From positions 224,001 through 288,000 of the forward strand of contig CAVUDW010000003.1 in NCBI GenBank assembly GCA_963740355.1: a stretch of DNA of 64,000 nt. The letters run 5' to 3'. The position numbers and the translations under genes are program-made. Of the stretch, positions 2,000 to 61,287 are shown piece after piece. The first letter of the stretch is position 1. Each line of letters opens with the position of its first letter. The notes beneath the pieces were generated by a model. That model saw only the letters and a list, made by a program, of their open reading frames with translations. It made no database searches and had not been told where the DNA came from. Source of the stretch: an uncultured Gemmatimonadaceae bacterium. Its GTDB lineage: Bacteria > Gemmatimonadota > Gemmatimonadetes > Gemmatimonadales > Gemmatimonadaceae.

Positions 2000-3279
2000 G
2001 ATCGGTCGTCATTCACGCGCACTGCTACCAACCACCGCGCGAGGACCCGTTCACGGGCCTCGTGCCGGTGGAGCGGTCGGCGGCCCCGTTCCATGACTGG
2101 AACGCGCGCATCACTGATGAGTCGTACCTCCCACTCGCCAACGCACGCGACCTGACGGCGCGTGCGCGCATCAACCTGTTCGAGTGGATCAGCTTCAACG
2201 TCGGTCCCACGCTGGCTGTGTGGCTGGAACGTGAGGCACCGGCGGTGCTGGATGCGATGCGCCTTGGCGACGCGCGCTCCGTCGAGCGACTCGGGCACGG
2301 CAACGCCATTGCGAGCGCCTACAATCATGTCATCCTCCCGCTCGCGTCGCCGCATGAACGCAAGCGGGAAATCTTCTGGGGCCTGCACGACTTCCGTGTG
2401 CGATTCGGTCGTGAGTCGCGCGGTTTCTGGTGTCCGGAAACCGCGATCGACGAAGACACGGCGCAGGCGCTGGCGGAGGCCGGTGTGCAGTTCGCCATCG
2501 TCGCACCGTACCAGATCCGCGACGGTGGGCACGACGGTCAACCACGCGTCTGGCGCGGCGCCAAGGGGCATTCCCTGCACCTCACGCCGTACCATGGTGA
2601 GCTGAGTGGCTCGATCGGCTTCGGTGACATGGCGCAGAATGGCGAAAAGCTCGCACATGCCCTCGCGCACATCGCCGAAGAACGTGGCATCGCCAGCATT
2701 GCGACCGACGGCGAAACCTTCGGCCACCACAAGCGGCACGGCGAGATGGCGCTGGCCGAGGCGATCGGTGCGCTGCGCCGCAACCAGAAGGCCACGGTCA
2801 CGAACTTCGCTGCGATCATCAATGCGCAGGAGAAGTGGCACGACTGCCAGTTGCTGTCGCCCAGTTCCTGGAGCTGTGCGCATGGCATCGAGCGGTGGCG
2901 CTCCAACTGCGGCTGTGGCGCGACACACGAAACCGGTCGCGCGCAGGAGTGGCGTGGTCCGCTTCGCGCGGCGTTGCGCTGGCTGGCGGAGGCGCTCGAC
3001 ACCGCTGACGGTGATGATCCGGAGCTGACGCCCCAGCGGAAGGCGCGCTATGGCATGTTCACCAGTTGCGGCTGGTTCTTCGATCGTTTCGAAGGGCATG
3101 AGCCGCGCTTGTTGATGCGCATGGCCGCCTTCGCCATCGCGGGGCGGAAGGACGCTGAGGAGCTCGAGGCCGGACTGGTGGCGCGCCTGATCCATGCCCA
3201 CGCCAATGATCGCTCGCTCGGCAATGGTGCCGATATCTGGTATCGCGACTTTCATCACCTGATCGCCGCGACGAAGTAG
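1996..3279 (+). CDS. Glycoside hydrolase family 57 / DUF3536-type protein
   Basis: N-terminal HAHCYQPPRE, plus FWCPETA, ATDGETFGHH, SWSCAHGIERW and MFTSCGWFFD. GTG start overlaps the glgP stop. Confidence 0.8.
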   Translation: MRSVVIHAHCYQPPREDPFTGLVPVERSAAPFHDWNARITDESYLPLANARDLTARARINLFEWISFNVGPTLAVWLEREAPAVLDAMRLGDARSVERLGHGNAIASAYNHVILPLASPHERKREIFWGLHDFRVRFGRESRGFWCPETAIDEDTAQALAEAGVQFAIVAPYQIRDGGHDGQPRVWRGAKGHSLHLTPYHGELSGSIGFGDMAQNGEKLAHALAHIAEERGIASIATDGETFGHHKRHGEMALAEAIGALRRNQKATVTNFAAIINAQEKWHDCQLLSPSSWSCAHGIERWRSNCGCGATHETGRAQEWRGPLRAALRWLAEALDTADGDDPELTPQRKARYGMFTSCGWFFDRFEGHEPRLLMRMAAFAIAGRKDAEELEAGLVARLIHAHANDRSLGNGADIWYRDFHHLIAATK

Positions 3280-3469
3280 CGAGAGACAAGCGCTGTCCTG
3301 TCCGTTGGCCGGGCCGACAGCTGAGTGTGCCAGCACGATCGTGAACGCCCGCACCTGCCGAGAGAAAATGGTCAGTGCGGGCGTTCTTGTTGTTGTGCGC
3401 GCTTGATGGACGGTGGATCAGGCGGTACTCAATAGCGCACGGCTGAAAAGCGCGCGCTGTTTCTGAAGG

Positions 3470-5725
3470 GTGGCCCTGACGGAGCGAGTCATGCTGATCT
3501 ATCCCCTGGTGCTCGACGCAGAGCAGCATGCGGGTGAAGTGCTGGACGTGCTCGCCACTCGCGACACAGAATCGTCGGCCGCCATGGTGGCCGTCCGCAA
3601 ACGTGATCGACTGCGCGTAGTGTGGTATCTGCTCCCGGCACGGGAGATTCGCACCGATTGCGAGGCCGCCGCGGCAAACGCCACGCTCGACAGTGCCTGC
3701 GATTTCGCACGGAACTACTACCGCGACGTTGCTGAGGTCTGCGACGTTCGGACACTGCCGCGTCCTTCGCTTGAAGCGCATGGATGGCTAATCGCAATGT
3801 CCGGCGGTCGTCTCGTCGGTGCAGTGCCTCCAGCATTCATGGCGGCGCCACCACCCCCGGAAGCGCCACAGGCGCCCGCGCCGGCTCCCGCTCCCGCTCC
3901 TGCTCCCGCCCCAGCGGCAGGCATGCCGCCGGCGGTGATCCTGCCCTACCCCTACATCGAGCCCGAGCCGGCGGCAGTGACACCCGCGCGCCCGAAACGC
4001 AGTGCAGCACACCGCGGACAGCGTGCGAAACCACCGACAGGCGCAGAGCAGCCGCAGGCCGCGGGGGCGGCGCCGGAAGAAGGCGTTGGCCGCGGTATCG
4101 AGGAGTCCGCCGGCACTCCGCCGGATGACGTCCTGCTGGCGCTGCCGCGCGTCGAGTCGCGCGAGCGGTATCTCCCGGGTGAGTCCGGCCTCGAACTGAC
4201 GATCGGGCTCAAAGCACCCGTCACGGCCACCGACCCGGGTGTCATGACCTTCGTGTCACCACACGCGGCGACCAGCATCGACATCGACGTCATGGTGGAG
4301 GCGCCGGACTTCACCTGCGCACAGGGTTGGAAACACACACTGACAGTCGACAAGTCTGCACCCTACGTGGCATCGCTGCAGTTGGTCCTCGTGAACGCAA
4401 CACCCGAGGATCATGCGCCCCGCATGGCCACCGTTCGCGTGCACTTCTCGTACAAGGGCCAACCCGCCGGCATGGCGGTGCGATTGGTAGCACTCGGCGA
4501 GGCAACGCTGGAGGAAGCAGAAGCGATCGCGCAGCCGACAGCTGCACCGCTGCAACTCGAAGCCAGCAAGACGCCGCTCGACCTCGTCATCCGGATTTCA
4601 CGGCGCGATCAGAGTGAGACCGCGCGCGAGTTGATCTGGACGCTGGTCGATTGTGCGCATCCGATCGCGTTGCCGGACGCCCCGCTGACGCAGAAAGTCG
4701 GCGATCGCGACACCGCTGCATCGTTCGCCGCCAAGGTCACGAGCCAGGTCGGTGGCGCCGACGGCACGGTGACGATCGACAACATCATGCGCAGCATCGG
4801 GACGCTGATCCGCCGCGCGATGCCGCCACAGGTGCTCCAGGCACTCACGGACGTGGCGAAAGCCGTCGGTCCGACGCGTCTTCCCTGGGTGTTGTTGCTG
4901 ACCGATGAGTGCAACGTGCCGTGGGAGTTGGCGCTGCTCGACGCGCCACCCGACGCCACGCGGGCACCATATCTCGGCGCGCAGTTCGCCGTCTCGCGAT
5001 GGATTCATGGCGAAACCGACATTCCGGTGCCACCGCCCGCCGTCCTCGAGGTCAGCAACCTCGCCGTCGTGCTGGGCAACTACGATGCGTCGAGCCTGGC
5101 GGCGCTGCCGCACGCGAAGGAGGAATCGACCGAACTCGCCGCGGAATCGGCGGCCGCCCCGTCGCGGTTTCCTCGCGTCACGAGCGTCGATGCCAGCGCA
5201 GACAGTCTGGTCGACCTGTTGAATGGTGCGCTGCCGTCCAACGGTGGGCCGATCGCGCCGGAACTGGTGCACTTCGCCTGCCATGGCGAGGTGCTGGGCA
5301 GCGGCGTCTCGAAGCGATCGGTCCTCTACCTCAGTGACGGTTCGCCGATGTCGGAGCTGCTCTTCGTGTCGTCGGCGCTGGGCAGGAAGACGAAGTCATT
5401 CCTCTTCATGAACGCCTGCCAGGTGGGTGTCGGCGGCGATGAGCTGGGCCAGTATGCCGGGTTCCCCGGCATGGCCATCGGTGCCGGATTCAGTGGCTTC
5501 GTCGGACCGCTGTGGAGCGTGAACGACCTGATCGCGAAGTCGATCGCGCTCGATTTCTACCGCAAGGCGTTCGGCAGCGATGGCGCATCACCGAGGGCGG
5601 TGGCCGAGGTCCTGGCCGACATGCGCTCGACGTATGCCAACGAGCCTGACCCGAAGAAGCGACAGGCCACATGGCTCGCGTACGTGCACTACGGACACCC
5701 GCACTTCACTCTTTCTCACGCGTGA
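3470..5725 (+). CDS. CHAT-domain (caspase-like, clan CD) protease with N-terminal domain, Pro/Ala linker and beta-rich middle domain
   Basis: C-terminal CHAT motifs VPWELA, LPHAKEE, VHFACHG (His), FMNACQ (Cys), FVGPLWSVND and WLAYVHYGHP. Start is uncertain (GTG 3470 or ATG 3491). Confidence 0.85.
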   Translation: MALTERVMLIYPLVLDAEQHAGEVLDVLATRDTESSAAMVAVRKRDRLRVVWYLLPAREIRTDCEAAAANATLDSACDFARNYYRDVAEVCDVRTLPRPSLEAHGWLIAMSGGRLVGAVPPAFMAAPPPPEAPQAPAPAPAPAPAPAPAAGMPPAVILPYPYIEPEPAAVTPARPKRSAAHRGQRAKPPTGAEQPQAAGAAPEEGVGRGIEESAGTPPDDVLLALPRVESRERYLPGESGLELTIGLKAPVTATDPGVMTFVSPHAATSIDIDVMVEAPDFTCAQGWKHTLTVDKSAPYVASLQLVLVNATPEDHAPRMATVRVHFSYKGQPAGMAVRLVALGEATLEEAEAIAQPTAAPLQLEASKTPLDLVIRISRRDQSETARELIWTLVDCAHPIALPDAPLTQKVGDRDTAASFAAKVTSQVGGADGTVTIDNIMRSIGTLIRRAMPPQVLQALTDVAKAVGPTRLPWVLLLTDECNVPWELALLDAPPDATRAPYLGAQFAVSRWIHGETDIPVPPPAVLEVSNLAVVLGNYDASSLAALPHAKEESTELAAESAAAPSRFPRVTSVDASADSLVDLLNGALPSNGGPIAPELVHFACHGEVLGSGVSKRSVLYLSDGSPMSELLFVSSALGRKTKSFLFMNACQVGVGGDELGQYAGFPGMAIGAGFSGFVGPLWSVNDLIAKSIALDFYRKAFGSDGASPRAVAEVLADMRSTYANEPDPKKRQATWLAYVHYGHPHFTLSHA
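3874..3917 (+). repeat. Degenerate hexamer tandem repeat encoding the (AP)n linker of the CHAT protein
   Basis: gcgcccgcgccggctcccgctcccgctcctgctcccgccccagcg translates to APAPAPAPAPAPAPA. Confidence 0.8.
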
Positions 5726-5743
5726 ACTCCTTCGGAGACGGCA

Positions 5744-7291
5744 ATGCCTGACTTCGTGCTCGATGGTAGCGGTGCCAAGGTCGATATCGGTCAGGGGTAT
5801 GCGATTCGCGCTCCCGGCATGACCGCCACGGGTCGGACCAGCGAAGGGCCGCGTCGACCCGGCACACGATCCCCAGAAGCGCAGGAGATGCCTGCGCTGG
5901 ATGCGGCGCTGGCATCGGCGAATGTGACGGAGATCAAGCAGGTCGAGCTGAATGATGTCCGGGTGCAGCCGGCCGGCGGCGCGACCCGCGCCTCGCGCGC
6001 GCCGAATGGCGACGATGCGCTGGAACTCGACGTGCCGGTCACGAACCCGGATCAAGGGTGCATCGTGCTCAGCGTCGTCGATGGCGCCCTCACCTGGCAT
6101 GTGCCACTGAACGATGACAACTCGGTGCAGACACCGACGACGCGTGGCGGCGGCACGGGGGCGAAGTATCGGTTCCGCATTCCGAACACGCCGCCACCAA
6201 AACCCGCGCCGGGGACTGGTGGCAAGCGCGGCATCATTGGCGCCATCGGCAAGAAGTTGCTGAAGGTGCTCGTCTACCCAATCACCGACCCCATCCTCGG
6301 CCCGATCGGTGAGCACTTCACGCGCAAGTGGGAGGAGAAGAGCCGCCCGTATGGCGTGCGGACCTTCACGCCGGAGAACTTCCAGACGCCAGCCGCCGGC
6401 GCATTCACCAGCGACGACTGGCAACGCATGGCCGGTGGTCGCGCGCTGATGTTCGTTCACGGCACCTTCAGCACGGCGCACGGTGGCTTCATGCAACTGC
6501 CAAAGGCCACCTTGCAGGAACTGAGCGAGCACTATGGCGGCCGTGTGTTCGCCTACAATCATTTTTCGCTCAGTGCGGACCCGCAGGCCAACGCCAGGGA
6601 GTTCATCAAGCGCATGCGCGAGGCCGGCGTGACACTCGATGTCGATATCATCTGCCACAGCCGCGGGGGCCTCGTGTCGCGTGCGCTCGCGGAGCGTGCC
6701 GCTGGCAGTGACCAGACGGACGACGAGTTTCGTGTCGGCGCAATCGTCTTCGTGGGAACACCCAACGCCGGCACCCTGCTCGCGCAGCCGGATCACATGA
6801 TGAGCATGATCGACCGCTACACCACGGCGCTGAACGTGATTCCGACGGGCCCGGTGACGGAGATTCTCGAGGCGATCGTCACCACGGTGAAGATCGTGGC
6901 ACACGCGACCATGAAGGCGCTCGACGGACTGATGTCGATGAATCCCGACGGTGGATACCTGAAGACCGTCAACCGGCCGAGTGCAATCGGGACTCGTTAC
7001 TACGCCATCGCCGCCAACTTCGAGCCGAATACGCCAGAGACGGCGCCGCTGAAGACCGTGATCAAGCAGAAAGTCGGCGATGCAATCGTGGATCGCATCT
7101 TCAAGGAGCAGCCGAACGACCTGGTGGTGCCGACGAACGGCGTGTTCACGGCTGGCGGTCCGCATTTCCCGCTGGAGGAGACTGCGCGGCTGGTCTTCCC
7201 TTCCGAGCGCGCCATCTGGCATTCCGCGTACTTCGAGCAGCCAGAGACGGCTGCGAAGTTGAAGGAATGGCTGATGACGCCCGTGGCCTGA
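5744..7291 (+). CDS. Alpha/beta-hydrolase (lipase/esterase fold) with an N-terminal extension of about 200 aa
   Basis: FVHGTFS oxyanion motif, nucleophile elbow ICHSRGG, GTPNAGT, NDLVVP (Asp) and WHSAYF (His). GGAG RBS lies in the 18-bp gap after the CHAT gene. Confidence 0.85.
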   Translation: MPDFVLDGSGAKVDIGQGYAIRAPGMTATGRTSEGPRRPGTRSPEAQEMPALDAALASANVTEIKQVELNDVRVQPAGGATRASRAPNGDDALELDVPVTNPDQGCIVLSVVDGALTWHVPLNDDNSVQTPTTRGGGTGAKYRFRIPNTPPPKPAPGTGGKRGIIGAIGKKLLKVLVYPITDPILGPIGEHFTRKWEEKSRPYGVRTFTPENFQTPAAGAFTSDDWQRMAGGRALMFVHGTFSTAHGGFMQLPKATLQELSEHYGGRVFAYNHFSLSADPQANAREFIKRMREAGVTLDVDIICHSRGGLVSRALAERAAGSDQTDDEFRVGAIVFVGTPNAGTLLAQPDHMMSMIDRYTTALNVIPTGPVTEILEAIVTTVKIVAHATMKALDGLMSMNPDGGYLKTVNRPSAIGTRYYAIAANFEPNTPETAPLKTVIKQKVGDAIVDRIFKEQPNDLVVPTNGVFTAGGPHFPLEETARLVFPSERAIWHSAYFEQPETAAKLKEWLMTPVA

Positions 7292-7309
7292 ACGGCGCTC
7301 CGCCGGGAG

Positions 7310-7816
7310 TCAGTCGCTCAGCAGTGCTGGGGTGCTCGCCTTGGTGAACAACACCGTACGGCGAGCGCCCTGATTCTCGACCTGCACGACGTTCACCTGA
7401 TCGGTGTGTGACTCCGTCATCATCTGGTTGCGCAGCCACGCGCCTTTCAGTCCTCGCGGCATCGTCGCACGAACACACACCCACACGAGGTCTTCAGCGC
7501 GCCGGGTGCCACACGGTTGCAACTGGATGAGCACACCACCGGCATCGCGGATGGCAAACTGCGCGCGCACATAGCGCAGCAGGTCAGCCTCCGACATCGC
7601 CGCACCAGATGGCAAGGGCTTGCCAGCGCTCTTCGCCACTGACGCCGCGAGATCATCAGCAAAGGCCCGGATCATGAGCGTGACGGTCTGGCCATCTGCG
7701 GTGACCTGCGTCATGGTGGTGTGAATCGCGTGCGCCTGCGCGACACTCGACAGCAGGACGAGCAGCGCAGCGGCACGCCGCGCGATGCGCGAGACGGTTG
7801 TCAGTCGGTGAGTCAT
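7310..7816 (-). CDS. Secreted DUF6702-like protein
   Basis: Signal peptide ending AQA followed by HAIHTTMT. Contains IRAFADDL and DQVNVV motifs. Confidence 0.6.
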   Translation of the reverse strand: MTHRLTTVSRIARRAAALLVLLSSVAQAHAIHTTMTQVTADGQTVTLMIRAFADDLAASVAKSAGKPLPSGAAMSEADLLRYVRAQFAIRDAGGVLIQLQPCGTRRAEDLVWVCVRATMPRGLKGAWLRNQMMTESHTDQVNVVQVENQGARRTVLFTKASTPALLSD

Positions 7817-7832
7817 GTCGGCGGCTTGTGCG

Positions 7833-9065
7833 TCAATCAGCGAGTGGAGTCTGCGGTGTGCTCACGCCGATGATGCGTGCATGGCGGGTGAGCAGCGGAT
7901 CTGGTGTGCCGAGTCGAAGCGCGGCGCGCATCGCCGCCTGTGCATCGGCATGTCGGCCGGATTTTTCCAGCGCCCAGGCGACGATGTCGTAGCCGTAGAC
8001 ATCCTTGCGAGCCCGAAGCTCTTCCTGCGCGCGCTCGAGCACTGTATCGACTTGCAGGCCGTGGTCGAGGAGGTAGAGGCTCCAGGCACGGTGATACGCA
8101 CCCGGCTGGAGACTCACCGCCACTTCGAGGGTGTGGAAATACTCGGCGGCTTTCGCGTGGTGGCCGAGAGCCTCTTCGGCATCACCAACCAGTCCCAGCG
8201 TGGCAGGGTCGAGCTGGCTCGCGATCGCCTTCTCACCCCACTCGACGACGTCGTGCCAGTCCTGTCGCGACGCCGCGAGGCGCGCCATTGCGGCGAGTAG
8301 TCGCGGATCCTCCGGTTCGATGCGCAGTCCGGCCTCGAATGCCGCTTCCGCCGCGTTGAGTCGGCCCGCGCGCAGTTCGAGGTCACCGACGCGCATCTCG
8401 AACCAGGCCTGCGTTTCGCTGGCCACATCGCGCCGCGAAAGGGCGTCGTCCCGCGCCGTCGTCAACAATGCGCGCGCTTCCGGCACATGGTTGTTCAGCT
8501 CCAGCCACCGTGCGAGACGCGCGGCGATGGTGAGCGTACTGCGAGCTTTCCAGACCGACCGGAAGAGCGTATCGGCAGCGCGATCGTCGCCCAGTTCCAT
8601 CGCAACTTCGGCCAGTGTCGCACGATACTCGGGCGTCTCCGGATCGTAGCGGACCAGGTTCTCCGCCACGACGCGCGCTTCGTTGAAGCGATGTTGCGCA
8701 AGCAGGATGGAGACGAGCGTCGACGAGGCCGCGGCATTCTTGTTCGTGCGCTTGGCGATCGAGCGACGGGCGAAGTCTTCTGCGGTGACGTAGTCCTCCC
8801 AGCCCCCACCCTCTCGCGCGCGCTGCAGGTGGAGCGCGGCGAGCTGGCCGGTGACGATCGCGCTGGTGGGATCCGCATCCAGCGCCTGATGCCAGACGCG
8901 GATCTGTACATCGCGGTTCGCCCGTTCGGAAAATCCTTGCACGCGCGGCGTCGCGGCCGGGGTGGCGGCCCGCGACTCCCGCGCGCTGCGGGCGAGCACC
9001 AAACCGCCGACCGTGACGATCACCGCCGCGGCGCTGATCAGGCGCATCGCCCGCATCGTATTCAT
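7833..9065 (-). CDS. Tetratricopeptide-repeat protein with N-terminal signal/anchor
   Basis: Repeated TPR-like helices (LLAQHRFNEA, AFEAGLRIEP, AWALEKSGRHADA). ATGA overlap with the upstream gene. Confidence 0.8.
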   Translation of the reverse strand: MNTMRAMRLISAAAVIVTVGGLVLARSARESRAATPAATPRVQGFSERANRDVQIRVWHQALDADPTSAIVTGQLAALHLQRAREGGGWEDYVTAEDFARRSIAKRTNKNAAASSTLVSILLAQHRFNEARVVAENLVRYDPETPEYRATLAEVAMELGDDRAADTLFRSVWKARSTLTIAARLARWLELNNHVPEARALLTTARDDALSRRDVASETQAWFEMRVGDLELRAGRLNAAEAAFEAGLRIEPEDPRLLAAMARLAASRQDWHDVVEWGEKAIASQLDPATLGLVGDAEEALGHHAKAAEYFHTLEVAVSLQPGAYHRAWSLYLLDHGLQVDTVLERAQEELRARKDVYGYDIVAWALEKSGRHADAQAAMRAALRLGTPDPLLTRHARIIGVSTPQTPLAD

Positions 9066-9619
9066 CGTGCGGCTTCGAGGTACGGGAACGTGGTCGGATA
9101 CGTGCGGACGCTGGTACTGATGTTGTCGGACGTCAGCCCGGTGACGACCGTCGCGTTCGCATCGAGCAGCTTGCCGAAGATGGCAGTCAGGCCTGCATCG
9201 ACGACGTCATCCTGGATCTTGCGGCCGCCGTATCCACCAGCGAGTGCCCAGCTGAGCCAGCCGGCGGTGTTGCCGGCGCGGTTCGGGTAGACCATCAACA
9301 TGTCGGGCACGAGCACGGCCGCGAGGGTGTTGGCGATCGTCGGGCCGCGATTGAAGGCGTTGGTGAATGCCTTGATCTTGTCGCCGAAGCCGTTTGCGAC
9401 GTCGGTGGCAGGGGCCGTGCTGTTGTGCAGGCCGTGGTCGCGCTTCATGAAGAAGACTTCGCTGACCAGCGGATTGCCGAGTCGCTCGACCTGGTTGTAG
9501 GTGCGGGTGACGTCAGGCGAGGTGGAGCCGCCACCGTTGTTGTCGTCCGAGCAGCCGGCGACGAGCAGAGGCAGGGCAAGCGCAGCACAGAGTGTGCGCG
9601 TACGGAACGTGGAACGCAT
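9062..9619 (-). CDS. DUF4331-family lipoprotein (C-terminal-half type)
   Basis: Lipobox LVAGC. Motifs QVERLGNPLV, GRKIQDDVVD and FPYL. Start reassigned to ATG 9619. Confidence 0.7.
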   Translation of the reverse strand: MRSTFRTRTLCAALALPLLVAGCSDDNNGGGSTSPDVTRTYNQVERLGNPLVSEVFFMKRDHGLHNSTAPATDVANGFGDKIKAFTNAFNRGPTIANTLAAVLVPDMLMVYPNRAGNTAGWLSWALAGGYGGRKIQDDVVDAGLTAIFGKLLDANATVVTGLTSDNISTSVRTYPTTFPYLEAAR

Positions 9620-9663
9620 CGACAGATCCCGGAAGAGTGGTGTGATCGAATGAAGGCGGCGCA

Positions 9664-10386
9664 TCAGCGGCTGATCGTGCCCCACACGCCGAACTTCGCG
9701 TCGGCGGCGGTGCTGGACAGGAGCGCGGACTTCGGGAGCTCGATGGCGATCGCCAGCGTGTTGAACGGGCGCAGGAAGTCGACGCCAGGGGTGCGGAATG
9801 ACGTTGCGGCCGCACCATTCTGTGTCGCCAGCGGGCCGGTCGATGGGCGACGATCGGGGATGATGTTGAAGAACTGCTCGAGGTCGATCACGAACGGATC
9901 CGCCTTGAGACCAGCGAATGCCTGAATGCCTGCGGCGTCACCGCTGGCGCTGCCGACAGTGCCGGTGACGACGGTGCCGGAGGTAACGAGCATGGTCTTG
10001 GTGCCGGTCATCGTCGGCGCGACGGGACCGCGCACGGTGTACTTCTGTGCGGCGCCGACACCGTTGTCGAAGGTCACCTGAAAGACGAGATCCTCGACCG
10101 CGTCGCCGGTGTTGTCGACCTTCAGCTGGTACAGAAGGTTGGGATCGAACGAGGCGCTCTGCCCGGCAATGGGGCTCGAGGTGGTGAGCACCAGGGCAAT
10201 GCGCGAGTCGCTCGATCCCGGGAAGGCGTAGACATCGTTGATGTCCATGCGCGGGCTGAGCTCGACTTCAGGGGTATCCTGATGGTCTGAAGCGTAGACG
10301 CGCTGTCCGATTACGAGCGCTGCGGCACCGAGGGCAACCAGTGCCGTCGTGCGCAACGGGCGTCGCGAAAAGGAAGGAAGATTCAT
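9664..10386 (-). CDS. DUF4331-family secreted protein (N-terminal-half type)
   Basis: Signal peptide then ASDHQDTP, DINDVYAF, FDPNLLYQLKVDNTGD, FAGLKADPF and GVWGTISR. Confidence 0.75.
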   Translation of the reverse strand: MNLPSFSRRPLRTTALVALGAAALVIGQRVYASDHQDTPEVELSPRMDINDVYAFPGSSDSRIALVLTTSSPIAGQSASFDPNLLYQLKVDNTGDAVEDLVFQVTFDNGVGAAQKYTVRGPVAPTMTGTKTMLVTSGTVVTGTVGSASGDAAGIQAFAGLKADPFVIDLEQFFNIIPDRRPSTGPLATQNGAAATSFRTPGVDFLRPFNTLAIAIELPKSALLSSTAADAKFGVWGTISR

Positions 10387-10480
10387 GTGTGGCGGCCGTG
10401 AGCGGGTGAGCGGCAGGTAGTTCACCGGTGACCTGTGAGAGGTCACACAGAGCCGGTCAGGATGGACCGGTTGCTCGAGC

Positions 10481-11947: not shown

Positions 11948-12397
11948 TCAGGCCTTCTCGCGTGAGGCTTCGTAGATCTCGATGCGCTTCTCCACGGGCG
12001 TCGACGCCACCATGTCCGCCACGACATCCAGCGGCAGCTCCTCGAGGGTCTTGAAGCGCAGGCATCCCTTCCCCATGTCGAGCTTCTTTCCCGCCGCCTT
12101 GTACGCTGCGGCGAGGCGCGCCATCAGCGTCTTGTCACTCGAGACACTGGTGAGGTAGAGTGCGTAGTTGTTCTTTTGCGCCGCAAGCGCCATGTACATC
12201 AGGGGCTGCTTGTTGTACGTATCGGGGTAGCGCGCGAGGGGAATTTCATAGGCCAGCATGCCCCAGTTCATCGTCTCGACATACCCTTTCGGCAAGTGCT
12301 TCTTCACCACGGTGCGCACTGCAGACACGACCTTGCGCCGTTCCGGTGGAAGGCTGGCCAGATACGCTGCGGGCGTGACTTCCTTGCTTGTTGCCAT
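11948..12397 (-). CDS. DUF1801 (YdhG-like) protein, copy 1
   Basis: Same motifs as the neighbouring copy (KLDMGKGCLRF). GGAG RBS. Confidence 0.8.
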   Translation of the reverse strand: MATSKEVTPAAYLASLPPERRKVVSAVRTVVKKHLPKGYVETMNWGMLAYEIPLARYPDTYNKQPLMYMALAAQKNNYALYLTSVSSDKTLMARLAAAYKAAGKKLDMGKGCLRFKTLEELPLDVVADMVASTPVEKRIEIYEASREKA

Positions 12398-39905: not shown

Positions 39906-41616
39906 TCAAGCATCGGCGTAGCAGTGCGTTTCCGCAAGCCCCCCCGGGTGCACCACCGCCCCATAGCGGGCTGGGCTGACCGTCTGCGCATACCGCCAAA
40001 TGGCCCCGGACTGGAAGTCGTGCTGCCGCGGTACCCACGCTGCTTTCCGCTCCGCCAGTTCGGCATCCGTCAATCGCACTGCGAGCGTCCCAGAGTCAGC
40101 ATCGATGTCGATGATGTCTCCGTCGCGCAGCAACCCGATGGGTCCGCCGATGGCCGCTTCCGGCCCGACGTGCCCGATGCACAACCCACGCGTGGCACCA
40201 CTGAAGCGACCGTCGGTGATGAGCGCCACCTGATCGCCCATGCCCTGTCCGTAGATCGCTGAGGTCGTGGACAACATCTCGCGCATCCCAGGACCACCGC
40301 GTGGGCCCTCATAACGAATCACCAGCACATCACCGGCGGCGTAGCGCTTCTCCATCACCGCGGCCATCGCCTCCTCTTCCGACTCGAAGACACGCGCCGG
40401 TCCGCTGAAGACACGCGTGTGAAGGCCCAGCCACCTTCACCACCGCACCGTCGGGCGCGAGGTTGCCGCGCATGCCGACCAGACCGCCGGTGGGCGAAAT
40501 GGCGTTGATCACCGGACGCACGACATCCTGATTCGCTGGCACCACCGTCGTGGCGAGATCTTCCGCAATCGTCTTGCCAGTCACCGTGATGCAGTCACCG
40601 TGAATGAAGCCACCATCCAGCAGCGCCTTCAGCACCACCGACGCGCCGCCGATGTCGTGCACATCCTTCGCCAGGTACCGGCCGCCAGGCTTGAGGTCCG
40701 CGATCAACGGCGTGCGCGCAAACACCTCGGCCACGTCGAAGAGGTCGAACGAGATTCCGGCTTCATGGGCAATGGCTGGCAGGTGCAGCGTGGCGTTGGT
40801 GGAGCCACCTGTTGCTGCGACGACGGCCGCTGCATTCTCGAGCGCCTTGCGGGTGACGATGTCGCGCGGCCGAGGCCCATGTTGCATCAGCCGCATCACC
40901 GCCGCACCACAGGCCTCGGCGTAGCTGTCGCGTGACTCCCACGCCGCTGGCGGGCTAGCTGATCCGGGCAGAGCGAGACCAATTGCTTCCGAGACGTACG
41001 CCATGCTGTTGGCGGTGTACTGCCCACCACAGGAACCGGCACCAGGGCAAGCGACCTTCTCGAGCGCGGTCAATTCTTCGAGCGACATCTTGCCGGCGGC
41101 ATGCTTGCCGACGCCTTCGAAGACATCGAGCACCGTCACATCGCGATCGTGGAAGCGTCCGGGCAGGATCGAGCCGCCGTAGAGGAACACTGACGGTACA
41201 TTGAGCCGCAGCATCGCCATCATCAAACCGGGCAGTGTCTTGTCGCAGCCGGCAATACCGACGAGGCCATCGTAGCAGTGTCCACGCACGGTGAGCTCGA
41301 CGGAATCCGCGATGGTCTCGCGGCTGACGAGCGACGACTTCATCCCGGCATGCCCCATGGCGATGCCGTCGGTGACGGTGATGGTCGTGAACTCCCTCGG
41401 CGTCCCACCGGCGGCGGCCACACCTCGCTTCGCGGCTTCGGCCTGCCGCTTGAGCGCGATGTTGCACGGCGCAGCCTCATTCCAGCTCGACACGACGCCG
41501 ACGATCGGCTGCTGAATCTCCGCCTCGCTCAGCCCCATCGCGTAGTAGAAGGCCCGATGCGGCGCCCGCTCAGGCCCGACGGTCGCGTGACGACTGGGAA
41601 GCTTCGACTTGTCCAT
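39906..41616 (-). pseudogene. ilvD: Dihydroxy-acid dehydratase with +1 frameshift near 40427 (probably an assembly error)
   Basis: N-part has PCN, TDGIAMGH, GCDKT, GSCGGQYTANSM and GGSTN. C-part has [13 protein letters not shown] and TDGRFSG. Removing one G from gctGGGcctt restores [22 protein letters not shown]. Confidence 0.9.
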
Positions 41617-52362: not shown

Positions 52363-53044
52363 ATGAAGACCATCCTCCCGCATCGTGCGATCGTTGCTGC
52401 GCTGGCCATCGCCAGCGCCATTCCATGCTCAGTGCTTTCAGCGCAAGCCGCTGCACCGCCCCGGGCGCGGCCGGCGGGATGGACGGTGCGTCCGGACGGC
52501 GGTGGCATGGATCACGGTGATGCCACGCGTGTCGACCTGCTCGAGATGAAGCCCGGCTTTCACGTCACGACTGGGTCCGGCAGCGATCCTGTTCGACAGC
52601 ACACAGCGTGCGAGCGGTGACTGGCGCATCGAGGCCACGATCCATCTCTTCAATCCGGGCGCGCGCGCGGAAGGCTTCGGGGTGTTCTTCGGCGGCCGTG
52701 ACCTCAATGGTGCCACCCCGCATTACAGCTATGCGCTGGTGCGACGTGATGGCAAGGCGATGCTCAAGGTGCGCGACGGTGCATCGACGCGCACCGTGCG
52801 CGATTGGGCCGCTAACGGTGCCATCCCGGTGTGGAAGGACGCTGCAGCCGCCGGCGCCAGCGTGCGCTATCCGCTGGTTGTGGAAGCGCGCGGTGATCGG
52901 GTCTCGATGTGGATTGGTGCCACGCAGATCCTCGACGCTGCTCGCACCGAGCTACCCACCGATGGCATCGTGGGGCTGCGCGTGAATCACTCGCTCAACC
53001 TGCACGTGGAGAGCCTTCGGGTCGCCGCGCTCCCGAAGCGATAG
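52363..53044 (+). pseudogene. Secreted beta-sandwich hypothetical protein with +1 frameshift near 52574
   Basis: The signal-peptide ORF joins ORF 52682..53044 if one G is removed from actGGGtccg, giving HVTTGPAAILFD. C-terminal DGIVGLRVNH. Confidence 0.6.
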
Positions 53045-53063
53045 TCCGAGGCGCTCTCGGCCC

Positions 53064-54618
53064 TCAATCGCTCGAAGCGGCCAATGAGGCATTCACCGGA
53101 AAGTGCAGCGGCAGGCTGACGACGAACTGGCTTCCGGTTCCGATGCCCTCGCTTCGCGCCTCGACGGTGCCGCCATGCGCCAGCACCAACTCGTGCACCA
53201 CATTCAGCCCGATACCCAGGCCGACACCGTTGAAGCCCACGGCCTGATGGTCCTGGAAGAACAGGTCGAAGACGCCATGCAGCGCGAGCGGGAGCGATTC
53301 CGATCCCAGAGTCGGTCACGGAGATGACGGCGTGCGTCGGCGTGGTAGAAAGCTCGAGGCTGAGATCGCCGCCGTCAGGCGTGTACTTCGATGCGTTGTC
53401 GAGCAGGTTGGTCACGACCTGCACCAGCCGCACGCTGTCTCCCTCGATCACGATCGGTAACGTCGGCAACGTGAGCGAGAACTTCTGCAAGCGCAGGTCC
53501 ATTGCAGGGCGGCAGGCGTCGACCGCGAAGGCGATGACACTACCGAGTTGGACGGCTTCGCGCTCGAGGCGCAGCTTGCCGGTGTGCGCACGCGAAACAT
53601 CCAGCAAATCGTCGATCAGCCGCGCCATGTGGACTACCTGGCGTTCGATGATGCCCTGCAGGCGCGGCAGGATGGAGTCGTTGGAACCAACGCGTTCCAG
53701 CAGCGCAGAAACATTCCGCATCGGAGCGAGCGGACTGCGGAGCTCGTGTGCCAGCATGGCCATGAATTCCGTCTGTCGACGTTGTGCGTCCTCCACGATG
53801 GCCTGCGTGTCGCGTGCCCGTAGGACGGTGAGCACCAGTTCCTGGTTCGCTTCGCGCAGTTCATCGTTGCGCCGCTGCTGTTCCGCAATCACCTCGTCGT
53901 AGCGGATGACTGGCCGCTGCAGGACGGCCACGGTGTCGGGGGCCAGCACCAGTTCGCCGGCCACCTCGTCGCCGTGAAACGCATACGTGCCCACTCCCCT
54001 GTGTCGGGCGCGGTACATGGCGGCATCCGCCTGCGCAATCAGCACGTCGATCTCGGATCCGTCATCGGGGAAGATGCTGATGCCGATGCTGGCGCCCAGG
54101 CGAACGACGTGCTCGTTGATCAGGAATGGTGCACCGAGCGTCAGGCCGATCTGCTCGCCGATGCGGGCCAGCCCGGCGCGTTCACTGACGTCGGTGATGA
54201 GGAGCACGAACTCGTCCCCTCCATACCGGCAAACGGTATCCGCAGCGCGTACCGAGGCCGTCAGGCACTCGGCTGCACGGTGCAACGCCGCATCGCCAAT
54301 CGTGTGACCAAGCGTATCGTTGATCTGCTTGAAGTTGTTGAGATCGACGAACATCACTGCCAGCCGCGAATTGTGACGGCGGGCGGCTGCAGCGGCCTGC
54401 GTGAAGCGATCCCGCATCAGCGTCCGGTTCGGGAGCGACGTGAGTGCGTCGAGATCGGCCAGACGCGCGACATCCTGCAGCTTGCGTGCCGAGGCTTCAC
54501 TGTCGAGCTGCGCCCGGACCGCCGCCAGCACCAACTGCTCGTTGACGTCACGCATCTTCGCGAACATCCGGGACATCCGGCTGTTCGCCTCGTCATGGCC
54601 TTCCGGCGTCGCCTTCAT
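53064..54618 (-). pseudogene. Diguanylate cyclase / histidine kinase fusion (GGDEF-HisKA-HATPase) with +1 frameshift near 53291
   Basis: DALTSLPNR, RYGGDEF, LAHELRSPL, NLLDNASKY and DSGIGI. Removing one C restores ALHGVFDLFFQ..GLGIGL..HGG..GSQFVVSLP, with the stop at 53064-53066. Confidence 0.8.
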
Positions 54619-54651
54619 GACGGCACGACGGGAGTTACCTGTTCGGCACGG

Positions 54652-56139
54652 TCATCCACTGGCCGGGCCGGAAACGTCGCGTGCCGGAGCGGTGCCTGGC
54701 TTCCGGGTAGGACGCCCACCGAGCAGGCCTTCCTGATCCGGGAGCATCTGGCCGATCACGATGCCTGAGTCATCGATCGTGAACTCGCGCAATTCATCGG
54801 AGTGCCGGCTGCCCCGCACCTTGACCACCGCCATGACGCGTCGCAGTCGGCTATCGACCTCGATGTAGCGTTGCACGATGATCGCATCGGTCATGAAGGC
54901 CGTGCCGTACGGACTGAATCGCAGGTCCGAGTACCGATCCTCGAGCTCGGACGTCAGCAGCACCGTCACGCCCTCGGCTGCGAGGGCCGCCACGAGGCGC
55001 GAGAGCGACTCGCGGAAGTCATCGCGGAATGTCGGCGCCAACGCCAGCTCGAATCCGGAGAGCGAATCGATCACGACGCGCTTCGCACCCAGCCGTCGAA
55101 TCTCCTCGATCAGCCGCAGCAGGATCTCATCGATCGACAGGTCGCGGGCGCCGGAGTCCACGACCGCCACGCGTCCGGCGGCCACCAGCTCGGCCAGCGC
55201 GTGATTGCTGCTCTGCCTCGGGTGCTGCTCGAAGATGGCGACGACGCCATTCTCGCCTCGCCGCGCCCCTTCGTTGAGGAATGCCGTCGCGAGAATGCTC
55301 TTTCCGGAGCCCGACGGCCCTGCGACCAGCAGAGAGAAACCCTGCGGCAGTCCGCCGCCGAGCATCTCATCCAGTTGTGGCACACCCATCGCAACGCGGA
55401 TGTCAGCAGCATCCGCCGCGCCGGTACTCGGCCTGGCGTATCCTGCTGACGCGAAGATCGTGATGCCCGTCTCCGTGATCCGGAACGTGTGCAGCCCGGG
55501 CAGCGTGGCCTGCCCACGCATCTTCATGATCTCGAGCTTGCGGACCATCGAGTTGCGCTCGACGCTCTGGCGCATCCAGATGATGCCATCAGCGACGGTG
55601 AACACCGGGTTCGAATCCGTCTCGCTGAAGTATTCGCCGATCAGGAAGGTCGTCGCCTGCCAGCTGGTCATCTGCACGCCCAGCTGCTGCACGAAGCCCT
55701 GCAACTTGGTGAGCGGGTTCCCCTCTGCTTCGCCCGCCATGATCACGGAGCGAAACGAATCGACGAACACCAATCCCGGCCCCGCCGCCTGCACCTCGGA
55801 CACGATGCGCTGCAGGACGCGATCGAGGTCGCCACCGATCGCATCTTCCGACAGGTTGATGAACCGGATCGACTTGTTGATTGCGTCGTTGTCGAAGAAG
55901 GCGAACTGCTGCTGGTAGCGCAGCATCTTCAGCGCCGGCTCGCCGAGCACCGTGAAGTAGAGCGCAGGGCGGTCCGGGGACGCGAGCGCGAACATGATCT
56001 GGTGCGCGAGCGTCGTCTTGCCGGACCCTGGTGGGCCGGCGATCAGGTTGAACGAGAACTCGGGCAATCCTCCGCCGAGCACTGTATCAAAACCCGGCAC
56101 CCCGGTGACGAGACGGGTGATCGTGGCTCGGGTTGTCAT
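54652..56139 (-). CDS. KaiC-like double-domain RecA-superfamily ATPase
   Basis: Two ATPase repeats: TGVPGFDTVLGGG / GPPGSGKT / VDS / KMRG and GVPQLDEMLGGG / GPSGSGKS / IDS / KVRGS. Confidence 0.9.
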   Translation of the reverse strand: MTTRATITRLVTGVPGFDTVLGGGLPEFSFNLIAGPPGSGKTTLAHQIMFALASPDRPALYFTVLGEPALKMLRYQQQFAFFDNDAINKSIRFINLSEDAIGGDLDRVLQRIVSEVQAAGPGLVFVDSFRSVIMAGEAEGNPLTKLQGFVQQLGVQMTSWQATTFLIGEYFSETDSNPVFTVADGIIWMRQSVERNSMVRKLEIMKMRGQATLPGLHTFRITETGITIFASAGYARPSTGAADAADIRVAMGVPQLDEMLGGGLPQGFSLLVAGPSGSGKSILATAFLNEGARRGENGVVAIFEQHPRQSSNHALAELVAAGRVAVVDSGARDLSIDEILLRLIEEIRRLGAKRVVIDSLSGFELALAPTFRDDFRESLSRLVAALAAEGVTVLLTSELEDRYSDLRFSPYGTAFMTDAIIVQRYIEVDSRLRRVMAVVKVRGSRHSDELREFTIDDSGIVIGQMLPDQEGLLGGRPTRKPGTAPARDVSGPASG

Positions 56140-56564
56140 GCGTTCGTGTCCTGTGCGGCAGGGCCGCGCTGTGGGATATCCCAGACGTTGCGCAGCAGTC
56201 GCGCAGTCAGGCCGGCTCCAACCATGCTGGTCAGCAGTCCGTCGAAGACCTCGAGCAGGGTGTGCCCGCCCGCGAGTGCCTCATCGGCCACCTGCGCGGC
56301 GACGGTGGCGCGCAGTGCTGACAGATTCATCGCGGTTTGCACACCGTCCGGGCCACCGCCGAGCCACGGGTGCGTCTTGCTGGCCAGAAAGAGGCTGCGA
56401 CCATGGAGGGCGGCAATGCCGCGAGTCCCAATGATCGGAGTCAGCTCGCGCTCGATTTCCGTCCAGATGGCGACGACGGTATCGGCCACCTGCGTGGAGC
56501 CTGCGCCGGTATCGGCGCGGCGGACAAAGGCCATCGCTATCTGACAACCCTGATGGCTATCCAT
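56136..56564 (-). CDS. Small helical hypothetical protein translationally coupled to the KaiC-like ATPase
   Basis: 142-aa ORF with ATGA overlap onto the ATPase start. Pseudo-repeated helices ELTPIIGTRG and LLTSMVGAGL. Confidence 0.7.
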   Translation of the reverse strand: MDSHQGCQIAMAFVRRADTGAGSTQVADTVVAIWTEIERELTPIIGTRGIAALHGRSLFLASKTHPWLGGGPDGVQTAMNLSALRATVAAQVADEALAGGHTLLEVFDGLLTSMVGAGLTARLLRNVWDIPQRGPAAQDTNA

Positions 56565-60145: not shown

Positions 60146-61212
60146 GCGCCCGGCGCAGCCGACGCTGCGGCTGCAGGAATGACGATCGACTCACCAGCAC
60201 GAACCCCACTCGTGACTTCGATCAAGGCGCCGCGCGTCGCACCGAGTCGGATCCAGCGACGCTCGTCGCGCTCTGCACCGCGCACGATCACGCCCGTGAG
60301 ATCGCCATCGCGAACGATGGCTGCCATCGGCACGAGCACTGCGTGGCCTTCGCCGAGTGGCAGTGACAACGTCGCAGCGCTGCCGGCGCGAAAGAGGCGC
60401 TCGCGATTGGGGACCGTGGCGTTGATCGTGAACAAGTTGCCAGAGCCGCTGGGAACGACACCTTCGACGATCGCGGTGGTCGCCACGCCATCGATGTGCG
60501 CCTCGAGCCGCTGCCCGCGTCGGATCGAACGCACGGCGTCGCCAGCAGCACTGACGACGATTCGCAGCGTAGAGACATCCTGCACGATCAGCAGTGGAGC
60601 GCCGGGCGCGGCGAAGCTACCCGGATCGGCCATCCGCGCAGTCACGATGCCTGCAAAGGGGGCACGCACGGTCGCGTAACTGCTGATTGCCGCAACTTCT
60701 CCGGCCGCGGCGCGTGCGGCGCGTACCCCAGCATCCGCGCGCGCGAGTCCGGTTTGTGCGGCGTCGAACTGCGCACGAGTTGCGGCGCTATCGGCGTACA
60801 ACGCCCGCATGCGCGAGGCTTGCGTTGCGGCCTCGGCCTGCATCGCTTCTGCATCCGTGATCGAGGCGGCGACCTGCGAGGCCTTGGCCGAGAGATCTCG
60901 TGCGTCGATCTGCAGCAGCACCTGTCCCTGCCGGACGACATCGCCCTCGTGCACTGCTACCGCCGTCACGGTGCCCATCAGCTTCGTGCTGATGGTGGCC
61001 TGCATCTGTGGCTCCGCGACCCCGGATGCTTCCAGCGTGCTCGCGATGACCGTATCGGCGAGCCGCAGCACCTGTCCAGGCGAACGCGCCGCCATGGCCG
61101 CTGGCGCGGCGTTCGTCTGCTCGGCACTGCCGCTGCACGCCGCCAGCGTCACTGCAGTGATCATCGCAACGGCGCCGCGTGTCATGGCATGGCGCATGGC
61201 TTGGGAATTCAT
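60142..61212 (-). CDS. RND periplasmic adaptor lipoprotein
   Basis: Lipobox LAAC, VHEGDVVRQGQVLLQID, VRAPFAG and VLVPMAAI. Confidence 0.9.
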
Positions 61213-61287
61213 ATCGATCAGTCCTGTCGTCGAGAGACGCAAATCAGCAGAAGAAGCGGAGGCGATGAAGGGAGGCATGAGTCAGCG

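Follow-up and report, generated by a model that had tools for sequence, protein, structure and literature searches.

The two genes and their products

The window analysed here is a stretch of 64,000 nucleotides from an uncultured Gemmatimonadaceae bacterium (GenBank assembly GCA_963740355.1, contig CAVUDW010000003.1, positions 224,001 to 288,000), and its subject is a pair of adjacent genes on the forward strand: a CHAT protease gene at 3470..5725, called as an open reading frame (ORF) of 751 amino acids with a GTG start, and the gene of a lipase-like serine hydrolase at 5744..7291 (ORF of 515 amino acids, ATG start), which we regard as a candidate zymogen effector. A first-pass annotation, made from the letters alone, had proposed that the two form a protease-activated effector system for defence or cell death, and both ORFs, the five motifs (HFACHG, FMNACQ, CHSRGG, NDLVVP and WHSAYF) and the 18-bp spacer that it listed are all present in the sequence and its translations. 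The GC content at third codon positions is 0.77 in the protease ORF and 0.80 in the hydrolase ORF, as is usual for coding frames of the window. Because the ribosome-binding-site-like GGAG at 3481-3484 precedes an in-frame ATG at 3491 by six bases, this ATG appears more likely to be the protease start than the GTG at 3470; the protein would then have 744 rather than 751 residues. The spacer (5726..5743, forward strand) separates the protease stop codon TGA (5723-5725) from the hydrolase ATG (5744) by 18 bp and carries a GGAG at 5734-5737, an arrangement that implies co-transcription and coupled translation of both genes. A promoter and terminator scan of 3100-7900 found no terminator-like site between the two genes; it also found no promoter-like site, and the one terminator-like site, which lies within the hydrolase gene, is fewer than in shuffled sequences, so that the scan as a whole is uninformative. 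Neither protein has a transmembrane-like segment, the maximal Kyte-Doolittle mean over 19 residues being 1.36 in the protease and 1.24 in the hydrolase (no dedicated signal-peptide predictor was used).

The protease begins with an alpha+beta domain (aa 8-125; 3491..3844, forward strand) that resembles the Pfam domain TCAD7, "ternary complex associated domain 7", and is a candidate sensor or regulatory domain. The Pfam match itself (aa 13-76, 22.3 bits, E 1.5e-4) falls just below the 24-bit cut-off; the homologous Variovorax partner proteases at loci L031 and L030 of our survey (see below) match TCAD7 at 4e-19 and 2e-19, respectively (69-70 bits), and a hidden Markov model (HMM) of the domain built in this analysis matches the window protease at 6.9e-27. 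ESM Atlas returned only sub-0.9 matches to unnamed clusters for aa 8-125. The domain is followed by a disordered Pro/Ala-rich linker (aa 126-214; 3845..4111, forward strand), in which the predicted local distance difference test score (pLDDT) is below 50 for aa 140-212; the linker includes a run of Ala-Pro repeats at approximately nt 3866-3916, and its length and sequence vary among close relatives. Next comes a constant body, which according to the secondary structure of the AlphaFold2 model comprises a beta-sandwich (aa 215-345), a small mixed domain (346-415) and a helical region (416-470) (together 4112..4879, forward strand), and finally the CHAT protease domain (aa 471-751; 4880..5722, forward strand), to which Pfam CHAT (PF12770) matches over aa 474-742 with E 1.1e-15 and 58.3 bits against a gathering cut-off of 24. 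The protein has no tetratricopeptide repeat (TPR) detectable with Pfam.

The model of the protease has a pLDDT of 84.1 and a predicted template modelling score (pTM) of 0.83. In a Foldseek search its best match in the Protein Data Bank (PDB) is the TPR-CHAT protein Csx29 (8eey_B, E 4.2e-11), followed by separases, the CHAT anti-sigma factor DdvA, gingipain R and SAVED-CHAT, all at 11-17% identity, while a sequence search of the PDB gave only a distant match to DdvA (8rot, 4.4e-8). The motifs HFACHG and FMNACQ occupy aa 601-606 and 646-651 and contain the dyad residues His605 (nt 5282-5284) and Cys650 (nt 5417-5419); the first-pass annotation had called the catalytic residues of both enzymes intact, and H601, H605, G606, N648 and C650 are indeed invariant in 56 of 56 CHAT partners. 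Beta-sandwich, mixed domain, helical region and CHAT domain occur together in 54 of 62 partner ORFs, as judged with domain HMMs, and the remaining eight are for the most part visibly truncated by the end of a contig. TCAD7 accompanies this whole body in 39 of the 54; the other 15 have the body alone, some of them being 5'-truncated ORFs and others having long unassigned N-termini. Because TCAD7 is replaced in some full-length partners and is only 31-40% identical to its counterparts in five close Gemmatimonadaceae relatives, compared with 74-83% for CHAT (linker, 28-42%; middle domains, 51-73%), the N-terminus is the fast-changing, exchangeable part of the protease, as expected for a sensing or regulatory domain, and relaxed constraint could also account for it. 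The earlier suggestion that the trigger acts on the protease's own N-terminal part is thus plausible.

The hydrolase carries two Pfam domains, DUF7362 (PF24062) at aa 27-168 (E 2.6e-7; 31.4 bits against a cut-off of 27.6) and DUF7379 (PF24096) at aa 235-410 (E 3.4e-55; 187.4 bits against a cut-off of 33). Its AlphaFold2 model (pLDDT 82.7, pTM 0.87) shows a beta-rich N-terminal domain, a low-confidence stretch at approximately aa 131-170 and an alpha/beta core with a helical lid. On this basis we divide the protein into a beta-rich N-domain that includes DUF7362 and ends at Arg134 (aa 1-134; 5744..6145), a candidate pro-domain; a middle segment consisting of a short conserved strand and a variable Pro/Ala-rich linker up to Arg162 (aa 135-162; 6146..6229); and segment 163-232 together with the alpha/beta-hydrolase core and its lid (aa 233-515) (6230..7288; all on the forward strand). 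Outside the short middle segment, identity to the five close relatives is 76-86% (N-domain, 76-81%; segment 163-232, 81-86%; core, 77-80%), so that segment 163-232, which starts Gly-Ile-Ile-Gly, is the most conserved part of the protein in this comparison. Nothing usable was found for the N-domain in ESM Atlas.

The catalytic triad consists of Ser306 (nt 6659-6661) in CHSRGG (aa 304-309), Asp459 (nt 7118-7120) in NDLVVP (aa 458-463) and His493 (nt 7220-7222) in WHSAYF (aa 492-497), all three of which are invariant in 61 of 61 hydrolases. Foldseek places the model closest to bacterial true lipases (6cl4, E 5.8e-9; 1cvl, 1ys1, 1ex9 and Geobacillus T1) at 13-16% identity and a TM-score on the target of ~0.5, and the nearest PDB entry by sequence is 7x2p, annotated as a "putative lipase" (E 2.5e-6 over ~115 residues). 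Judged by sequence, neither the hydrolase nor the protease has a close relative of solved structure. With true lipases of families I.1, I.2 and I.5 (e.g. Burkholderia cepacia and Geobacillus T1), the modelled hydrolase shares the Ser-Asp-His triad and the helical lid, whereas it is only 13-16% identical to them and its gene is coupled to that of a protease. True lipases are secreted, and we know of no protease partner for them. A secreted lipase was considered as a reading of the hydrolase and rejected because the protein lacks a hydrophobic leader and its gene is coupled to the protease gene.

Pairing and fusion of the two enzymes across phyla

We scanned one genome per species for 185,579 species and found 416 relatives of the hydrolase, which are spread over many phyla at similar identity in a sparse and patchy distribution. 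The 80 loci that we kept come from Gemmatimonadota, Acidobacteriota, several classes of Pseudomonadota, Desulfobacterota-type lineages, Rhodothermales, Actinomycetota, Chloroflexia, Planctomycetota and Eisenbacteria; the ORFs of these loci were called mechanically, several of them extending too far at the start codon. A CHAT ORF matching the window protease lies directly upstream of the hydrolase in 61 loci, on the same strand and usually with a gap of 1-40 bp, and is fused to it in one (L009), giving 62 of 80. Counting any caspase-superfamily protease, 72 of the 80 loci have one adjacent to or fused with the hydrolase: nine (L043, L049, L050, L054, L055, L062, L069, L077 and L079) encode a single protein of ~1,170 aa with a Peptidase_C14 caspase domain at the N-terminus and the whole hydrolase at the C-terminus, and in one (L060) the hydrolase is N-terminal and the Peptidase_C14 caspase C-terminal. 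Six loci (L016, L025, L056, L057, L073 and L075) are cut off by the start of the contig, and in four of them a further CHAT gene follows shortly downstream; L042 has a hydrolase with an unassigned 467-aa N-terminal extension and a WD40 protein upstream, and L072 could be placed in none of the other arrangements. All 13 locus fusions examined retain N-domain, linker and core. As a separate observation, Ser/Thr protein kinase-TPR proteins of ~950-1,150 aa recur beside the caspase-hydrolase fusions (six loci, neighbour cluster 12; upstream at L050, L055 and L069, and also at L054 and L059).

Fusion is prominent among longer relatives of the hydrolase, defined as proteins of more than 902 aa. There are 121 such matches, and the figures given here refer to the 120 that were listed: 115 carry a caspase or CHAT domain (PF00656 or PF12770), and the hydrolase is C-terminal in 80 of the proteins and N-terminal in 23, the remaining 17 being arranged otherwise. 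The first-pass annotation had named a failure of homologues to co-occur or fuse as grounds for refuting its proposal; the opposite is found, with adjacency or fusion at 72 of the 80 loci and fusion in 115 of the 120 longer proteins. One of the longer relatives, P0247 (1279 aa), has DUF7362-DUF7379 fused to a thermolysin-type peptidase (PF02868, PF01447) rather than to a caspase; here the class of protease has been swapped while the theme of protease plus hydrolase is kept. Proteins of ~1,800-2,050 aa (P0243, P0245, P0252, P0254, P0257, P0259, P0260, P0264-P0266 and P0269) combine CHAT, a DUF7379 or LCAT-like hydrolase and a TPR-S "sensor" repeat; these giants are distant single-chain versions that can be aligned in the hydrolase core only, with no alignable counterpart of Arg162.

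Among 1.84 billion representatives, a profile search gave 4,467 relatives of the hydrolase at E <= 0.001 and 1,547 at E <= 1e-30, counted as cluster representatives; the best 150 matches are all long forms, roughly 28 of them fusions of at least 900 aa. Pairwise distances of the protease body and of the hydrolase are strongly correlated over 40 pairs (Mantel r = 0.90, with none of 2000 permutations attaining this value; r = 0.89 if the close clade is left out). Since both proteins also track organismal relatedness, the correlation documents only that the two are inherited as one unit. Across phyla, protease and hydrolase are linked either as neighbouring genes or as fusions, the latter in both orders.

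These data leave hardly any room for the possibility that two unrelated enzymes just share an operon: with adjacency or fusion at 72 of 80 loci across many phyla, a caspase-family domain in 115 of the 120 longer relatives and co-divergence at r = 0.90, this explanation is close to refuted.

Candidate cleavage sites and a possible route of activation

The first-pass annotation had suggested that the protease frees the hydrolase from an N-terminal extension, and this extension proves to be a conserved domain followed by a flexible linker with two conserved arginines. Arg162 (nt 6227-6229) occurs in all 61 hydrolases, with Gly as the next residue in 40, Ser in 19 and Ala in 2. It ends the linker P147-R162, which is Pro/Ala-rich and 11-20 residues long across homologues (pLDDT 57-61 for aa 151-170), and is the sole invariant residue within this low-confidence, length-variable stretch. 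Because it is invariant in a flexible and otherwise variable linker, Arg162-Gly/Ser resembles a cleavage site. It is kept in 120 of 121 near-length homologues (one gap), in 102 of the 120 longer fusions (17 gaps and one Lys) and in 13 of 13 locus fusions, and for comparison the catalytic Ser306 is kept in all 121, all 120 and all 13. Arg134 (nt 6143-6145) is followed by Gly135 and is near-invariant, with R134 in 59 and G135 in 52 of the 61 hydrolases; R134 is kept in 118 of the 121 near-length homologues but in only 51 of the 120 longer fusions, being lost in 69. Judging from these patterns, the main cut would most likely fall between Arg162 and Gly163, and a second cut probably follows Arg134 in this clade.

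Precedents exist for both the pairing and the cuts. Kaur et al. 2020 (eLife, PMC7159879) predicted a pairing of caspases with alpha/beta-hydrolases; according to the available parts of that paper, every caspase domain in their VMAP ternary systems has a neighbouring alpha/beta-hydrolase gene, and the two were concluded to operate together. A 2021 paper from the same group lists, in the portion accessible to us, the alpha/beta-hydrolase as an effector that hydrolyses membrane lipids. More recently, Evans et al. (bioRxiv, 14 Nov 2025, PMC12642450) counted an alpha/beta-hydrolase module among the most abundant protease-effector modules. In the sections of that preprint available to us, LcCaspase of Lysobacter capsici AZ78 cleaves the 296-aa LcHydrolase at Arg73 and Arg117, giving toxic fragments; the Arg-Gly motif is conserved in 161 homologues of LcHydrolase; and the substrate of LcHydrolase is described as not known. 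LcCaspase and LcHydrolase carry the accessions WP_153018843.1 and WP_060410396.1, respectively. Our literature search found no paper naming DUF7379 or DUF7362, nor, among the papers listed, further work on this pairing. The novelty that the first-pass annotation implied was therefore too high, because the pairing had already been described.

As far as the accessible text of Evans et al. (PMC12642450) allows a comparison, the Lysobacter and window pairs have several features in common. Both have the order protease then hydrolase and a caspase-superfamily protease with an intact Cys; both hydrolases have an alpha/beta fold and are lipase-like by remote homology, a comparison made by description; the two conserved Arg-Gly sites of LcHydrolase may have counterparts in Arg134-Gly and Arg162-Gly of the window hydrolase; and in both types the pairing is conserved and the variable regions lie on the protease. 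They also differ. LcHydrolase has 296 aa and is cut inside its fold, whereas the window hydrolase has 515 aa, an extra DUF7362 and candidate sites before the fold; the protease domain of LcCaspase is N-terminal (Cys129), whereas the window protease has a CHAT-clade domain at the C-terminus behind TCAD7 and the beta-sandwich; and TCAD7 takes the place of the NTPase or repeat sensor of the tested case.

Our working hypothesis is that the two genes form a self-contained module in which the CHAT protease activates the lipase-like hydrolase as an effector, likely causing cell death or arrest as a defence or conflict response, and we hold this, with some reserve, to be the probable explanation. The two genes belong to the pairing of Kaur et al. 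and, by analogy, would work like the caspase/hydrolase-zymogen module of Evans et al. Both enzymes are intact, and the Arg sites are conserved within a region predicted to be flexible; what we infer is the direction of action, the exact cleavage sites, the toxicity, the action on a lipid or ester, the trigger and a part in immunity. Specifically, a cytoplasmic CHAT protease would be kept off by its variable TCAD7 N-domain and disordered linker until a signal arrives, and the hydrolase would be latent, with its beta-rich N-domain tied to the catalytic core via the flexible linker. Once activated, the protease would cut the hydrolase linker after Arg162 (Arg-Gly/Ser) and here probably after Arg134 too. 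As a result, the N-domain would come off or be unlatched, a piece of roughly 28 residues would be cut out, and the freed hydrolase would be switched on and kill or arrest the cell.

Relative to the tested Lysobacter case, what would be new is an added pro-domain as opposed to an internal inhibitory insert, a CHAT-clade protease, the lack of an NTPase sensor and candidate cuts in an inter-domain linker. Several properties of the proteins weigh against this hypothesis, however. The differences from LcHydrolase in size, domain content and site position mean that the analogy may not carry over. With R134 present in just 51 of the 120 fusions, a double cut is not general. In the fusions in which the protease is C-terminal to the hydrolase (23 of 120), a cut at R162 would leave the core joined to the protease. 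Finally, the invariant Arg-Gly could instead serve a structural role.

Some of these observations bear on an explanation in which the direction is reversed or the action joint, i.e. the hydrolase is not the substrate but a cofactor, scaffold or sensor that controls the protease, or the two enzymes share a third target and the cell is killed by the protease, through cleavage of host or invader proteins. Fusions in both orders (80 and 23 of the 120 listed) suit a stable two-enzyme complex equally well, the N-domain of the hydrolase, with 76-81% identity among close relatives, is a conserved part and not a disposable one, and, in the available text of PMC12642450, a caspase-like protease without a dedicated effector still protects E. 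coli from phages. On the other hand, the invariant triad argues that the hydrolase's own catalysis matters, Arg162-Gly/Ser looks like a cleavage site, and the sole experimentally studied caspase/hydrolase pair runs from protease to hydrolase in that same text. Taken together, we consider a reversed or joint action quite unlikely.

Genomic context and rival explanations

As the first-pass annotation had described, the pair lies between glycogen genes and an unrelated convergent operon: according to Pfam, the genes upstream, in the same orientation, encode glycogen phosphorylase and a GH57 protein, and a convergent DUF6702/TPR/DUF4331 set follows downstream. The Pfam scan covered 41 of the 42 called ORFs of the window, the one left out being the ORF at 11948-12397. 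Among these 41 there is no family of the cas, gasdermin or CD-NTase type (no repeat search for a CRISPR array was made), and the window contains no second CHAT gene according to a search with the HMMs built here. The first-pass annotation had seen no gasdermin, CRISPR or cyclase in the window; two GGDEF diguanylate cyclases are encoded elsewhere in it.

We compared the pair with three known systems that join a protease to a neighbouring protein. In type III-E CRISPR Craspase, Csx29 cleaves Csx30. Csx29 is the best structural match of the window protease (12-16% identity), and on the basis of the models the two appear to share the logic of a CHAT protease with a neighbouring protein; they differ in that gRAMP/Cas7-11 and Csx30 were not found in the window and that the TPR of Csx29 is replaced by TCAD7 and the beta-sandwich. 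Membership in Craspase was rejected because no cas family occurs among the 41 ORFs scanned and the protease has no TPR. A bacterial gasdermin system was likewise rejected because the only co-oriented adjacent gene of the protease is the hydrolase gene. The VMAP (MoxR-vWA) ternary and GAP1-N1 systems, as presented in the available parts of Kaur et al. (PMC7159879), have obligatory caspase and alpha/beta-hydrolase neighbours, as in the window. TCAD7 is found on the window-type protease family and its Pfam name points to the work of Kaur et al., and the term was not found in the main text or the two supplementary files of PMC7159879 that were available. No MoxR, vWA or VMAP family is present among the 41 ORFs scanned and no such recurrent cluster among the 80 loci; DUF58 and VWA genes lie upstream at a single locus among those examined (L014). 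Membership in a VMAP ternary system, with its order of VMAP, MoxR AAA+ and vWA genes, was rejected because the window has no MoxR, vWA or VMAP-C gene, and the pair stands alone.

The genomic context also counts against activation of a death effector in defence. No NTPase or other recognised sensor is found in the window, the rest of which is housekeeping (chemoreceptors, cyclic di-GMP enzymes, an ilv/leu operon and efflux pumps), and NCBIfam and PADLOC gave no match to either protein. Five close relatives have the same glycogen-gene flank and six the same downstream TPR gene (neighbour clusters 13 and 7), and these shared flanks look more like stable inheritance than like a shuffling island. 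In a survey of 66 of 165 selected neighbouring ORFs, from 18 related loci, conflict-related neighbours were found only at L012 and L024. The pair is thus not in a recognisable defence island. The first-pass proposal is partly supported: its core idea of a CHAT protease acting on the neighbouring hydrolase fits everything that was tested, whereas its assignment to defence finds no counterpart in the surroundings of the genes or in PADLOC.

These observations would suit an explanation in which the module serves housekeeping or development, i.e. regulated proteolysis activates an enzyme that remodels lipids or esters in stress, starvation or differentiation, with no killing and no link to phages. 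The conserved flanks, the metabolic or transport genes that neighbour the pair in the window and in most related loci, and the lack of a PADLOC match all speak for it; in addition, the alpha/beta-hydrolase module of PMC12642450 is described, in the sections available, with fragment toxicity and not with a phage-defence assay. We nevertheless regard this explanation as unlikely, though it deserves to be taken seriously, because several other features point away from housekeeping. The 416 relatives are spread sparsely and patchily at similar identity over many phyla of the 185,579 species, and the N-terminal domain of the protease diverges fast. A second, distinct CHAT gene lies near the pair in 24 of the 80 loci (including L010, L018, L022, L024, L027, L029, L033, L050, L054 and L065), and in several loci its product is fused to SIR2 (SIR2_2), AAA_16 (a STAND-like ATPase), TPR, OmpA or Big_2; this second family may be an upstream sensor protease or part of a protease cascade. 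L024 has an nSTAND1 neighbour and L043 a caspase-nSTAND1-WD40 neighbour. Patchiness, fast divergence and second CHAT or STAND genes are the usual marks of conflict systems in the accessible part of Kaur et al. (PMC7159879), and their joint occurrence here would be consistent with a conflict role. As a side observation, the CHAT-AAA_16 gene is directly followed at L010 (11824-17436) and L027 (10878-16757) by ORFs of 1,870 and 1,959 aa, respectively, that have no Pfam match except for a peptidoglycan-binding domain in L010.

Starting again from activation of the hydrolase by the protease, a bolder variant can be formulated in which the pair is an NTPase-free, self-sensing caspase switch. TCAD7 would recognise an invader or stress signal, and the cut after Arg162 would unmask a membrane anchor by exposing the glycine-rich, hydrophobic and amphipathic N-terminus of aa 163-232, which would carry the lipase to the membrane; in the loci with a second CHAT gene (24 of 80, some fused to STAND, SIR2 or TPR), the second gene would act first in a protease cascade of two steps. 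We regard this variant as improbable. If true, killing would proceed via a proteolytically unmasked membrane anchor on an enzyme, and the module would parallel gasdermin-type activation by enzymatic means.

Four further regions of the window deserve mention. At 9062-10446 on the reverse strand, two overlapping ORFs of 207 and 260 aa match positions 250-420 and 125-236 of the 421-position DUF4331 profile, which looks like one gene split by a frameshift, through either pseudogene formation or a sequencing error. At 39906-41616 on the reverse strand, ilvD (dihydroxy-acid dehydratase) is likewise present in two ORFs, overlapping at 40330-40367, one with the N domain and C-domain profile positions 1-45 and the other with C-domain positions 57-191; this second apparent frameshift in the window hints at assembly errors. 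The reverse strand at 52987-56564 encodes in a row a KaiC-like double ATPase, a 142-aa ORF without an assigned family and a GGDEF-HisKA-HATPase hybrid, and the forward strand at 60496-62361 has a 621-aa ORF with a coding-like third-position GC content of 0.73 and no Pfam match at E <= 1e-5.

In bacterial immunity, the gating of death effectors by proteases is turning out to be a widespread principle, with a parallel in the caspase-driven cell death of animals. The design considered here is itself already known, with a prediction dating from 2020 and an experimental demonstration on a comparable pair from 2025, and the present case is well supported and modestly novel. Its value lies not in a new principle but in precise, testable predictions (cuts after Arg162 and Arg134; dependence on Cys650 and Ser306) and in the size of an uncharacterised family, which counts 4,467 representatives in many phyla and both of whose domains Pfam labels as being of unknown function. 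If confirmed, the module would prompt one to ask which signal TCAD7 responds to and which molecules the hydrolase breaks down, and it would mean that the hydrolase-zymogen idea has been realised by more than one architecture.

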